DNA of 33,611 nt from a virus (Duplodnaviria > Caudoviricetes): the IMG/VR virus record IMGVR_UViG_3300031228_000020, positions 1 through 33,611 of that record; one strand, 5' to 3'. A program made the position numbers and the translations under genes. Within the stretch, counting starts at the first letter, position 1, and each line of letters starts with the position of its first letter. Under the pieces are notes generated by a model that had not been told where the DNA came from, ran no database searches, and saw only the letters and a program-made list of their open reading frames with translations. Below, piece after piece: positions 21,802 through 32,060 of this stretch.

Positions 21802-22631
21802 GGGGTTCCTCCGAAGCTGGCGGGTTGGGTGCTGGTCGGTGCGGTGGCTCCGAAGATCCCACCGCCGTAACTGGCGTTCGGGTCGAGGTTAGCCCACGGG
21901 TCGCCGGCCATGCGCTGCTTCGGCATCGGCGGCGCTAGCTCCGTGAACCGCCGCTGACCGAGCCACGTCGCTGCGTGCGGAACGTACTGCCGCTCACGTG
22001 CCTGCAACACCGGCAGATGCTCGCGGAGCCCGTCAGCGATCACCGTCTGTGGCACCCCGGAGCGTCGTACGGCGCGGTACGCCTTGAACGCTGCCTGTTT
22101 GCCGTCTTTGCGTGGCCACAGCTCCCAGAACCCGGCGAACTCAGCATCAATCGGATCGCCTCTCTCCACGTCGGCATCGCCGACAAGCGCGAGCTGAGCG
22201 GGGGGTAAGGGGGGTAGTAGTTCTTCCTGTTCTTTAAGAGAGGTAGTGACGGCGGCTCCCGCCGTCACTGTGTCGGCGGGTGGCTCCGGCTCGTGACGGT
22301 GCGTGACGCCGTCACGGGAACCGGTGTCTGCTTCGTCCGCGAACGCCGGCCGGTACTGCAAGGTCGGGTCGAACGCTGACACCCGCTGACACTCGATCAT
22401 CCGCCGGTCACGCAGCAGCGTCAGTGCGGATTTCAGCCGGTGCTCGGTGAACCGCAGCTCTGCGCACATCGCTGCGCGGCTCGCCGCCCACCAACCGTCG
22501 CCGGCTCGGTACTCGATCCGGTTCATCAGCGCCGCCGCGTCCCATGAGCCGTCGAGCGCGTCGACAAGATCAAGATGCACCATCACGAAGTCGGTCCGGC
22601 CGGACCACTCTCGGCGGTATGCCCCGATCAC
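21798..22631 (-). CDS. Phage replication initiator (N-terminal winged HTH, C-terminal FW..WPRK domain); start uncertain (22631 or 22583)
   Basis: AAALMNRIEYR...WWAASRAAMCAELRFTEHRLKSALTLL; EFAGFWELWPRKDGKQAAFKAY...YVPHAATWLGQRRF. Confidence 0.75.
   Translation of the reverse strand: MIGAYRREWSGRTDFVMVHLDLVDALDGSWDAAALMNRIEYRAGDGWWAASRAAMCAELRFTEHRLKSALTLLRDRRMIECQRVSAFDPTLQYRPAFADEADTGSRDGVTHRHEPEPPADTVTAGAAVTTSLKEQEELLPPLPPAQLALVGDADVERGDPIDAEFAGFWELWPRKDGKQAAFKAYRAVRRSGVPQTVIADGLREHLPVLQARERQYVPHAATWLGQRRFTELAPPMPKQRMAGDPWANLDPNASYGGGIFGATAPTSTQPASFGGTP
22201..22316. repeat. Candidate replication origin: GTGACG iterons in dyads next to an AT-richer tract inside the initiator gene
   Basis: GTGACG at 22246, 22293, 22303 and CGTCAC at 22263, 22310; TAGTAGTTCTTCCTGTTCTTTAAGAGA just upstream. 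Confidence 0.5.
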
Positions 22632-22807: not shown

Positions 22808-22846
22808 GGCTGGGTCAGACCCGCCAACCGAAAGCGACCCCTGATC

Positions 22847-24526: not shown

Positions 24527-24717
24527 GCCGCCGACCGAAGGCCGGATCCTCAGTGTGGGGTCTACGCCGTCACCAGTGGGGGAGCTACGTCCGCGCGCTT
24601 GGTGACTCCGTGCAGATCGTGTGGGAGGACCGGTCGGTACTCACAGTCAGCCGCGCTGATGCCCGCCTGCTGGCGAAGCGGATCAACCAGTGTCTAGACG
24701 ACACGAGACTCCCATGA
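24523..24717 (+). CDS. Hypothetical protein
   Basis: ATGA overlaps at both ends. Confidence 0.6.
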   Translation: MSRRPKAGSSVWGLRRHQWGSYVRALGDSVQIVWEDRSVLTVSRADARLLAKRINQCLDDTRLP

Positions 24718-25220
24718 CCGCCGATCAGGTAGCCGATCCGCTCGACGTCGGCGGTGTGATCGAGCTGCTCGCCGAGGACACCGGCCGTCTCGATGCGCTG
24801 CTCACCACCGCGCAGCTCGACCGCGAGGCCCCTGAGCACTGGCTGATCGTGCTCCGCGATCTGCGGCGCGTGATCGAACAACTCCGCACCCTCGACGCCG
24901 GGCTCGTGCGGCACATCTACCTCACCGCCGAGCACGGCAAACAGGTCATCGACGGCATTGGTGAAGTGTGGGTGGCACGCAGCAAGGACCGGAAGAAATG
25001 GGATGAGCGCGGCGTCGCTCAGGCGGTTCTCGATCACCGGATGAACGAGCGCGGCGGCGAGATCCCGAACGATCCGTGGGAGATCGCTGAGTGGCTGCTA
25101 GACGTGCTCGCTGTCAGCTACGTCCGTGTCACTCCGCTGCGCAGCATGGGGCTGGAACCGGACGCGTTCTGCGAGACCGTGACCGGCAAGCCGTCGGTGA
25201 CACTCCCGCCGGCCGACTGA
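24714..25220 (+). CDS. Hypothetical protein
   Basis: ATGA overlap; GC3-biased; ends the annealase operon. Confidence 0.7.
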   Translation: MTADQVADPLDVGGVIELLAEDTGRLDALLTTAQLDREAPEHWLIVLRDLRRVIEQLRTLDAGLVRHIYLTAEHGKQVIDGIGEVWVARSKDRKKWDERGVAQAVLDHRMNERGGEIPNDPWEIAEWLLDVLAVSYVRVTPLRSMGLEPDAFCETVTGKPSVTLPPAD

Positions 25221-25325
25221 TACCGTGAACGTGTCCGGTGAATGGACACGGGTGGTTCGCCTTGGCGGGTTGGACTCACCGGCCGCCCCGGCTCTCCCCT
25301 CGCGGATGAGCCGGGGCGGCACTCA
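25221..25325 (+). ncRNA. Candidate structured RNA carrying the antisense of the CAACCCGCCA box
   Basis: Hairpin CGTGTCC/GGACACG (25230-25250), TGGCGGGTTG (25263-25272), 13-bp terminal stem. Confidence 0.3.
25282..25320 (+). terminator. Terminator-like hairpin
   Basis: GCCGCCCCGGCTC (25282-25294) / GAGCCGGGGCGGC (25308-25320). Confidence 0.7.
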
Positions 25326-25334
25326 TCTAAACGC

Positions 25335-25364
25335 TAGACACGGCACACGGTTGTGATCTAGTGT
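25335..25364 (+). promoter_or_regulatory. Phage promoter copy 3: TAGACA-N18-TAGTGT
   Basis: Exact family match; AGGAG and ATG 25399 downstream. Confidence 0.8.
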
Positions 25365-25398
25365 GGTGCTCATCAACCCGCCACCGTCAGGAGACACC

Positions 25399-27932: not shown

Positions 27933-27937
27933 AACGC

Positions 27938-27967: not shown

Positions 27968-28004
27968 CCAGAGCAGCACAACCCGCCAACCACAGGAGAA
28001 CCGA

Positions 28005-30877: not shown

Positions 30878-31199
30878 ACAGACCGAACCGCTCACGATCC
30901 CTGCAGCCGCGAAACTGCAACCCGGCGAGCTGATCCGCTTCCTCGGCGACAACTCGTGGGAGCTGGCTGACAAGAGCAGCGACCACACACCGGACGACAA
31001 CGAGCTGATGAACAGCCGCGCGCTCGTGCTCACGGTCGACCTCGACGGCAACGCGACGCTGCTCATCCGTGACGACGCCGACACCGCCGCCGCGATCGAC
31101 TGGCTCGGGAAAGCCGTCGAGCATCTGCGCACGCTGAGCGCGACACCGGCCGAAGATGTGCCGCCGCTCGACGGTGCTAGCGGTACGCTCACACCATGA
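30870..31199 (+). CDS. Hypothetical protein
   Basis: GGAGG RBS before ATG 30870. Confidence 0.65.
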   Translation: MTEQTEPLTIPAAAKLQPGELIRFLGDNSWELADKSSDHTPDDNELMNSRALVLTVDLDGNATLLIRDDADTAAAIDWLGKAVEHLRTLSATPAEDVPPLDGASGTLTP

Positions 31200-31366
31200 C
31201 AGAGCAACCCGCCACACAAGACGAGACCGCGATCGTGCCGGACTCCGACGCCGACCCTGACAACGAACAGCCGGATCTCGACGCCGTGTACGACGACGAT
31301 CCGGACGACCTGCCACGCGACATCGACGGCGTGCAGGACGACATCGACAGCGAGCCGGAGCAGTGA
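31196..31366 (+). CDS. 56-aa highly acidic peptide
   Basis: Not in the ORF track; ATGA overlap upstream and GTGA overlap with the endolysin; 22 D/E and one R. Confidence 0.65.
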   Translation: MTEQPATQDETAIVPDSDADPDNEQPDLDAVYDDDPDDLPRDIDGVQDDIDSEPEQ

Positions 31367-31995
31367 GCCAGCGCAACACTCGCGAGACCGTGCAGTGGTA
31401 CCGCGAGCATGAGACCACCGCACAGCTCGGCTACAACCCCGACGGATGGTGCCTGCGGATCTGCCGCGAGGCACGCAACATCGGCGCCGTCTACCCGTCC
31501 GCTGTCACTGCTCAGAACGCGACCCCGGCCGCGCACCGGGTGCACGACGTCGCTGATATCCGCCGCGGGATGGTCGTCTACTACGACGACCCGAACGACA
31601 GCAACGCGTTCGGACACATCGCCACCGTCGTCGGCCGCGACCGCGACGCCGACCCCGGCTCACTGTCATCGCTGCTCGTCCGCAGCAACAGTGTGAAGAC
31701 CGGTCAGATCGTCGTCACCCGCGGCGACTACTTCCCCCGCTACTGGGGTGACGCGTACACGTTCGCCGCGACGTGGCTCAACGGCGTCGTGCTCGACCTT
31801 CCCGACCGTACGCCGCCGACGCCGCCGCCGGCGTACATCGGCCGCCGTGGCGCTGACCGGCTCCGTGCGATCGACGCGGAGCTGACGCAGATGATCGAGA
31901 ACCACCGCCGGTTCGGCAACGACCGGCTGGTGCGCGCGTTGAAACGTGACCGTGCAGCTGTCCGGCAGACGCTCCGCGAACACACCAAACGCTAG
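31363..31995 (+). CDS. Endolysin, CHAP/NlpC-P60-like cysteine peptidase
   Basis: GWCLRICR (catalytic Cys), YPSAVTA, RGMVVYY, FGHIA (catalytic His), YWG..Y...WLNGV; Pro linker and basic helical tail. Confidence 0.75.
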   Translation: MSQRNTRETVQWYREHETTAQLGYNPDGWCLRICREARNIGAVYPSAVTAQNATPAAHRVHDVADIRRGMVVYYDDPNDSNAFGHIATVVGRDRDADPGSLSSLLVRSNSVKTGQIVVTRGDYFPRYWGDAYTFAATWLNGVVLDLPDRTPPTPPPAYIGRRGADRLRAIDAELTQMIENHRRFGNDRLVRALKRDRAAVRQTLREHTKR

Positions 31996-32022: not shown

Positions 32023-32060
32023 TTGTGGTGTCAGCCCGCCACAGACACAGGAGCAACCTC

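Follow-up and report, generated by a model that had tools for sequence, protein, structure and literature searches.

The 33,611-nucleotide (nt) stretch of phage DNA analysed here, IMG/VR record IMGVR_UViG_3300031228_000020 (hereafter the window), is a 33.6-kb contig of 68% G+C that carries capsid and tail genes, a replication-initiator pair read leftward and early genes read rightward. On its plus strand a gene for a 168-amino acid protein of unassigned function (24714 to 25220) is followed by a gap, 25221 to 25325, whose predicted fold has a z score of -4.7. A preliminary description, made from the letters of the DNA, had proposed that this gap specifies one trans-acting antisense RNA directed at the leaders of many phage transcripts. 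That proposal is borne out in part by the analysis reported here: the gap holds a candidate RNA unit whose seed is complementary to a short tag, ACCCGCCA, found at the starts of other phage genes, and the RNA is supported by conservation of the unit in 8/8 tag-bearing genomes, covariation of its stems, joint change of seed and leader, a predicted promoter of its own, and evidence for one strand. A role in shutting off early genes would be plausible.

The candidate RNA unit

All elements of the unit are read from the plus strand. The predicted promoter (25197 to 25226) combines the -35 sequence GTGACA with the -10 sequence TACCGT across 18 nt and would place the start of the RNA near 25233. Across this start lies a 7-bp hairpin or DNA dyad (25230 to 25250), the sequence of which is not common to the relatives. 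The seed hairpin follows (25251 to 25280), with the tip UGGC and with the core UGGCGGGU, complementary to the leader tag, at 25263 to 25270; next comes a terminal G+C hairpin (25282 to 25320) that has a perfect 13-bp core (25282-25294/25308-25320) and no U tract and is the predicted 3' end. The predicted 94-nt RNA (25233 to 25326) folds into the short 5' hairpin, the seed hairpin and the terminal hairpin with a z score of -4.35. A scan for σ70 consensus sequences, which demands TATAAT-like matches and a T run, found neither promoter nor terminator at the locus. Immediately downstream is an early promoter-like repeat, TAGACA..TAGTGT (25330 to 25364, plus strand), which recurs at 27933 and 31988 and, with the -10 sequence TAGTGC, at 426; each of the four repeats (TAGACA, about 18 nt, TAGTGT or TAGTGC) stands ahead of a tag or near-tag. 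Inverted repeats overlap or flank the predicted -10 sequence in the window (25230-25250) and at L001:14302-14332, L014:8382-8402 and L009:4795-4822, and these may be DNA dyads for a regulator rather than RNA hairpins.

The inverted copy of the tag reported in the preliminary description, CTTGGCGGGTTGG at 25261 to 25273, is present, as are the 7-bp hairpin and the 13-bp stem. An alternative pairing of CCGGTGA with TCACCGG (25235-25241 and 25276-25282) had also been suggested; both sequences exist, but the pairing is absent from the predicted fold and has been dropped. The gap is not strictly free of open reading frames (ORFs), as had been thought, since a 74-codon minus-strand ORF overlaps it, although no conserved leftward ORF lies behind the inverted box. 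A conserved leftward peptide behind the inverted tag was considered and rejected: 3/7 loci have no start codon there, and the peptides at the others are unrelated. The seed itself is only partly open. UGGC forms a tetraloop, while the GGG of the core pairs weakly with preceding pyrimidines; opening the core would cost 5.2 kcal/mol, which puts the seed between a fully open and a locked state.

The tag and its targets in the window

The 9-mer AACCCGCCA occurs five times in the window, where 0.21 copies are expected, and 0/300 Markov simulations reach five. The 13-mer is at chance level when up to three mismatches are allowed (10 matches, 10.3 expected). The five target sites previously named are correct, but two further targets with one wobble each had been overlooked. 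Across all seven, net pairing energies (for the duplex after opening both the seed and the target sides) run from -7.7 to -12.0 kcal/mol. The tag at 27979-27989 (plus strand, perfect match of 11 nt, -12.0 kcal/mol) stands ahead of the AGGAG of a DUF932-like gene (start 28005), and that at 25374-25383 (plus, 10 nt, -11.5 kcal/mol) lies 5 nt ahead of the AGGAG of start 25399. On the minus strand, the tag at 21818-21828 (11 nt, -9.1 kcal/mol) precedes the GGAGG of a leftward ORF (start 21801) within the 3' end of the replication-initiator gene, while the tag at 22819-22827 (plus, 9 nt, -7.7 kcal/mol) lies ahead of start 22847, in the leader of the operon at whose end the RNA is found. The two wobble-containing tags, both on the plus strand, are ACCCGCCG at 466-478 (start 493, -10.2 kcal/mol) and GCCCGCCA at 32034-32041 (start 32061, -9.4 kcal/mol). 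When the 136 starts led by a Shine-Dalgarno sequence are ranked by seed duplex energy, the top six non-self starts are all tagged, and starts 493 and 32061 both fall within the top five.

The remaining tag, at 31205-31214 (plus, 10 nt, -10.1 kcal/mol), abuts no clear ribosome-binding site. It occupies codons 3-6 of an ORF with its ATG at 31198, or else precedes a weak GTG. This small, acidic, 56-codon ORF (31186-31368) has the -10 sequence TACGCT six bases ahead of the ATG and is probably leaderless. Tags within first codons are also seen in four of the relatives described below (G001, G002, G003 and G004). Two gene labels given earlier need revision: the supposed helicase loader matches only PHROGs without known function, and the DUF932 label rests on PF06067, which we take to be DUF932, as found on two homologs.

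Conservation in tag-bearing relatives

With the DUF932-like gene as anchor, the search pool took in 35 viral and 80 bacterial loci; it also included three metagenome loci and phage Pam4. From it came eight genomes or contigs of related, high-G+C phages that bear the tag ACCCGCCA: the window, Pam4, L012, L013 and G001 to G004. Each of the eight contains exactly one unit of promoter, seed and terminal hairpin, and the exact core occurs in 61 of their Shine-Dalgarno-led leaders, with 2-14 such leaders in each genome. In a screen whose criteria were chosen after the elements had been seen, only 10 of the 109 core complements in these genomes had TANNNT 15-90 nt upstream; eight of the 10, one per genome, are then followed by a helix of at least 13 pairs at -36 kcal/mol or better. 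An upstream -10 was found for 0/85 tag complements outside the pyrimidine-plus-helix subset. In the primary units TANNNT lies 23-77 nt ahead of the seed (8/8), whereas four secondary anti-tag hairpins have no -10 (0/4). Thus, by sequence, the unit is predicted to be an independent one, with promoter, structured seed and terminator in 8/8 genomes.

The tag begins 17-32 nt ahead of the start codon. Its spacing to the start (standard deviation 3.4, n=61) is tighter than the spacing from -10 to tag (standard deviation 7.6, n=44), although the definition of a leader itself restricts the former range. A -10 sequence precedes 44 of the 61 tags by 9-35 nt, and 17 have none within 50 nt. The tag extends into the Shine-Dalgarno GG in all six G004 leaders, in both of those in L012, in four of five in L013, and in four of 10 in Pam4.

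Searches farther afield did not extend this set. More than one tagged leader was found in 0/80 of the bacterial-genome loci with a DUF932-like gene. Loose DNA pattern scans gave chance matches only (seven stretches, and the 120 matches listed of about 2800), none with the system. A covariance model run on 83 sources (1.35 Mb) found again the 11 copies on which it had been trained but nothing further below E 0.05; this model is insensitive, because the real G003 unit scored only E 0.33.

Two arrangements differ from the primary units. In G004 (C1:17376-17426, L302) the tag and its Shine-Dalgarno sequence form a perfect 15-bp inverted repeat around a -10, which would mask the ribosome site only in read-through RNA. 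In L013 (5296-5365) a 15-bp hairpin presents an anti-tag loop about 25 nt ahead of a tagged start, a possible cis switch or pseudoknot.

Structure, covariation and strand

Alignment of 11 seed hairpins, a hand-picked set, reveals an invariant C.UGGCGGGU and variable sequence elsewhere. The stems around these inverted copies have a median energy of -15.6 kcal/mol, versus -8.0 kcal/mol for the complements of the 61 leaders (p 1e-5). When the structure is imposed on the 11 sequences, 78.8% of cells are paired, versus 37-58% in slid controls. Five of the nine stem pairs show two-sided changes, and the covariation score was reached by 1/500 shuffles; the alignment contains no gaps, and some stems are out of register in it. 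At the variable positions of the upper stem a fixed G faces either U or C (12 U-G and 10 C-G among 22 variable cells); since the U-G cells would be mismatched on the other strand, the upper stem works only on the anti-tag strand.

The G003 unit provides a natural inversion. It lies on the minus strand, flipped relative to its neighbours, inside the tail of an exonuclease-like ORF (a label taken from its own sequence rather than from a search), and its -10, seed and terminal hairpin are all reversed together, so that the anti-tag reading is kept. The anti-tag strand folds at -71.2 kcal/mol versus -57.5 kcal/mol for the other. That the flipped unit has been kept intact favours an independent RNA over a passive 3' end.

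Seed and tag change together

Outside the core, the seed and the leaders of a genome tend to share their flanking bases. Immediately ahead of the core the window seed has A, as do 4/5 window leaders; this base is G in 10/11 G001 and 13/14 G002 leaders, as in the seeds of those genomes. The base after the core is G in 6/6 G004, 2/2 L012 and 4/5 L013 leaders and A in 10/11 G001 leaders, in each case matching a seed of the same genome. Over 5040 permutations of seven genomes, seeds fit the leaders of their own genome better than those of others by match length (p 0.018) and by duplex energy (p 0.0024), values that overstate independence because the genomes are related. G003 was left out because its unit was found later.

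Other tag families

Cultured Arthrobacter phages of cluster AT have the same layout with another tag, GGCGAAAG, and their seed has been exchanged to match. In the stretches searched, KellEzio (L009:4830-4920) contains 15 sense copies and one inverted copy, and DanielleIgnace (L010:8275-8335) 16 sense and two inverted copies; in both, an inverted copy sits at a hairpin tip. The available text of PMC5513430 does not mention a leader tag in cluster AT. A third family, CCACCCAA, occurs at L025:6620-6680 (the same in L026), with seven sense copies, one mirror hairpin and TANNNT upstream. A scan of 115 loci for any leader tag gave a candidate in 28; beyond the ACCCGCCA phages, only L025 and L026 had a convincing mirror hairpin. 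Strong leader tags, TATCAGGAA, CCAAGGAAG and TGGAAGGAG (5-10 copies, in L022, L027, L035 and L037), are without a mirror hairpin in the 14-21 kb examined.

Cluster K mycobacteriophages carry 11-19 start-associated sequences (SAS) per genome at gene starts, and a lone reversed copy is present in each of four K1 phages; as far as the available text goes, PMC3203893 notes this copy without explaining it and leaves open whether RNA or protein reads the SAS. Papers of 2024 and 2025 still call the role of the SAS unknown or unverified (PMC11373665, PMC12699233, in their available parts). In K1 and K5 phages the reversed SAS was found in the loop of a long hairpin (L310:284-295, L311:314-326 and L325, near 190): in the K1 phages Adephagia (JF704105 58682-58694; L310) and LilPharaoh and, with another position and stem, in the K5 phage Kratio (813-825; L311). 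The K6 phages DarthP and Unicorn have a degenerate pyrimidine loop. Overall, of 10 Cluster K phages examined, three have a mirror hairpin, two a degenerate one (K6) and five none, and the link to Cluster K suggested by these sequences is thus partial. Reversed SAS in ZoeJ and Aminay were rejected as mirror copies, being the starts of leftward genes. In Adephagia the hairpin occupies the gap between genes 92 and 93. Late transcription apparently starts in this gap, and the phage is temperate, according to the available text of PMC11373665; such a position fits a late shut-off of early genes.

Proposed mechanism and alternative explanations

The scheme that we consider rather probable is that the unit produces, from its own promoter, a trans-acting antisense RNA of about 90 nt that likely blocks translation of the tagged early genes. 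Its observed base is the tag at gene starts, the one unit of promoter, seed and terminal hairpin per genome, and the covarying stems. Transcription would run from about 25233 to about 25320. Pairing would begin between the open UGGC tetraloop and GCCA in the tag, after which the upper stem, which is weak and 3 bp long, would open at a cost of about 5 kcal/mol, giving a duplex of 9-11 bp with a net energy of -8 to -12 kcal/mol. This duplex would form 5 nt ahead of the Shine-Dalgarno sequence in the window phage and over it in Pam4, G004, L012 and L013. With the duplex beside or over the Shine-Dalgarno sequence, ribosome loading would be expected to fall, and, more speculatively, early accessory, recombination and replication genes might be shut down as infection proceeds.

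Several points weigh against this scheme. The transcript, the pairing and the repression are all predicted. Only four seed bases are predicted to be open, and the seeds of Pam4 and G002 are buried in the fold of lowest energy, with an opening cost of about 10 kcal/mol. By match length, the leaders of G004 are fitted less well by its own primary unit (8.7) than by the seeds of other genomes (up to 12.8). A wobble test was null: 6/16 one-mismatch leader tags are wobble-compatible, versus 197/544 in the background (p 0.55). The after-the-fact criteria of the screen, the hand-picked set of 11 copies, the restrictive definition of a leader and the relatedness of the genomes pull in the same direction. 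In Cluster K, no mirror hairpin was found in TM4, ZoeJ, Pixie, Keshu or Aminay; the K2, K3 and K7 examples lack it. A prospective test in Microbacterium phage AnnaSerena, whose SAS is published (PMC7302621), failed, as the two near-matches in reverse orientation fall within apparent coding sequence, outside any hairpin loop. Finally, joint change of seed and tag also fits a DNA-binding protein whose specificity has drifted.

The last point belongs to a different explanation, in which the tag is an asymmetric DNA site of a phage protein, of operator or stoperator type, and the inverted copy is an extra site in a terminator region or a regulator of the promoter. The location of most tags just behind promoters, the null wobble test, and the perfect inverted repeat of tag and anti-tag around a -10 in G004 are in keeping with such a protein. 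However, it would leave unexplained the covarying stems around the inverted copy, the U-G pairs on one strand, the order of promoter, seed and hairpin kept on flipping, the tags without promoters, and those inside first codons; we judge it quite unlikely. The same RNA-RNA pairing might instead have another outcome, with the mRNA being stabilised, cleaved or otherwise degraded, or translated more. The 44/61 tags that lie shortly behind a -10, and hence near 5' ends, would suit this, as would the duplex of the window phage, which is beside and not on the Shine-Dalgarno sequence, and targets that are mostly unstructured (opening cost 0.2-4.2 kcal/mol). Yet unstructured targets leave nothing for pairing to unmask, and the seed covers the Shine-Dalgarno GG in G004 (6/6), L012 (2/2), L013 (4/5) and Pam4 (4/10), so that an outcome other than a translational block appears unlikely. 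We think it very unlikely that the hairpin acts only in cis, as an operon-end structure whose partner is the tag on the transcript that carries it or, after read-through, that of the following gene. The window unit does end an operon that has a tag in its leader (22819) and lies about 100 nt before the tag at 25374, the second hairpin of L013 is about 25 nt before a tag, and the secondary hairpins have no -10 (0/4); but the primary units have their own -10 (8/8), that of G003 is on the strand opposite its neighbours, and a single unit faces 2-14 tagged leaders per genome.

The opposite strand could in principle be the functional one, either as a decoy that shows the tag to an RNA-binding protein, which is the logic of CsrB, or as the leader of a leftward peptide. 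Taken locally, the seed hairpin folds about as well on one strand as on the other, and the minus strand, with its tag plus AAGG/AGGA, resembles a leader. The U-G pairs, the -10 and the downstream hairpin all favour the anti-tag strand, however; moreover, each unit has a single motif rather than many, and the absence of a start codon at 3/7 loci, with unrelated peptides at the others, speaks against the peptide. A function of the opposite strand is hence highly improbable. Little probability is likewise given to an immunity RNA of c4 or CI type, as raised in the preliminary description, that would hold a prophage or plasmid state and block superinfection. Its logic would be that of c4 (available text of PMC12197685), Adephagia, which has the layout, is temperate (PMC11373665, in part), and a replication-initiator gene as target would suit a plasmid prophage. 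Immunity is weakened by the finding that neither a tyrosine integrase (PF00589) nor a serine recombinase (PF07508) domain occurs in the five records searched (0/5), of which four are incomplete, the window being without about 18 kb of a 51.9-kb contig, and one, Pam4, is complete. In addition, cluster AT is described as lytic in the available text of PMC5513430, and the Adephagia hairpin is at the site where late transcription apparently starts.

Genomic setting of the locus

Two window proteins are also recorded on a contig of 51.9 kb, and it follows that about 18 kb is absent from the window. The nearest annotated relative is Pam4 (ON014756.1), which is syntenic with the window at the locus. 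After Pam4, the closest protein matches are in Arthrobacter, Gordonia and Mycobacterium phages and in actinobacterial genomes, and for this reason we infer that the host of the window phage is actinobacterial. Pam4 has been published as a phage of Pseudanabaena with 73.6% G+C (PMC9382816, available text); given this composition for a recorded cyanophage, and proteins nearest to those of actinobacterial phages, its host may deserve a recheck.

The gene upstream of the gap is directly upstream of the RNA unit in 6/8 genomes. The 168-amino acid protein has a weak structural likeness to Gam/DUF7173, which is a lead only, and a search with it gave no usable viral contig and two new metagenome loci. 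Elsewhere, the palindrome TGCTAGC(A) is repeated in the window (1674, 11942, 20699, 22662 and 31176) and in Pam4 (5198, 13059, 14962, 18734, 30788 and 33070), where it precedes portal, capsid and other late genes; it is possibly a late promoter or operator.

Comparison with known systems

The target side of the system has a published counterpart in the SAS/ESAS of Cluster K (PMC3203893, available text), and the preliminary description, which knew of no such system in actinophages, is to that extent qualified. Like the SAS, the window tag is asymmetric, keeps one orientation, stands at the starts of non-structural genes downstream of a promoter-like repeat, and is reversed in rare copies. However, the SAS consensus GGGATAGGAGCCC is the ribosome-binding site itself, whereas ACCCGCCA is mostly just upstream of it. 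An antisense hairpin for the SAS is not proposed in the available text of PMC3203893, PMC11373665 or PMC12699233, and the literature searched, with most subscription journals beyond reach, contains no description of the RNA or of a phage regulon of one RNA and many leaders. Other phage antisense RNAs, in the sources partly available, have one operon or host genes as targets. From sequence comparison, we conclude that the conserved element is real and that it is a predicted trans-acting antisense RNA of a new variety.

It is possible, although somewhat short of an even chance, that the element represents a widespread, undescribed form of lytic timing, in which early messages bear a private tag, one antisense RNA is the off-switch, tag and seed are swapped jointly between lineages (ACCCGCCA, GGCGAAAG, CCACCCAA, GATAGGAG), and the SAS are thereby explained in at least some Cluster K phages. 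If so, an RNA master switch would time genes without a protein repressor, acting on 7-14 tagged early leaders of the phage itself. The same layout is present in the cultured phages KellEzio, DanielleIgnace, Pam4, Adephagia and Kratio, so that the idea is testable now, and it supplies a concrete, testable candidate for the reader of the SAS, a question open since 2011. For use in actinobacteria, such an 8-nt tag together with a single small RNA would also make a control part that is both compact and orthogonal.

Stoperators of mycobacteriophage L5, which are mentioned in PMC3203893, are the closest DNA-level parallel. They are likewise short asymmetric repeats oriented with transcription. The evidence above points indirectly to a tag system that is read by RNA rather than by a repressor of the L5 type. 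Stoperators are bound as DNA by a repressor and show no link to start codons, and to our knowledge the L5 system has no mirror copy within a covarying hairpin.

The c4 RNA of P1 and P7 is phage-encoded and trans-acting, with loop-borne complementarity around the ribosome-binding site of an mRNA of the same phage (PMC12197685, available text). The window unit shares this feature computationally, having loop-borne complementarity at the ribosome-binding region of its targets. The c4 RNA controls one antirepressor operon for immunity (PMC12197685, in part), whereas the window seed faces seven leaders, and those of relatives up to 14. The P4 CI RNA is similar in being a small phage RNA that pairs with short target boxes in an early leader (PMC3632133, available text). 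The likeness to P1 C4 and P4 CI drawn in the preliminary description thus holds for the logic but not for membership of a family, since Rfam gave no match at the gathering score in the window (best E 0.31, 17.5 bits against a cut-off of 88, to an unrelated family). CI RNA arises by processing of the transcript that it targets and brings about premature termination, whereas the window unit has a predicted promoter of its own, one seed hairpin and dispersed targets. RNAs of the c4/CI family are processed by RNase P from a precursor, and have two seed loops that face paired target boxes in one icd-ant or kil leader; the window system, in contrast, has one invariant seed and single, dispersed tags.
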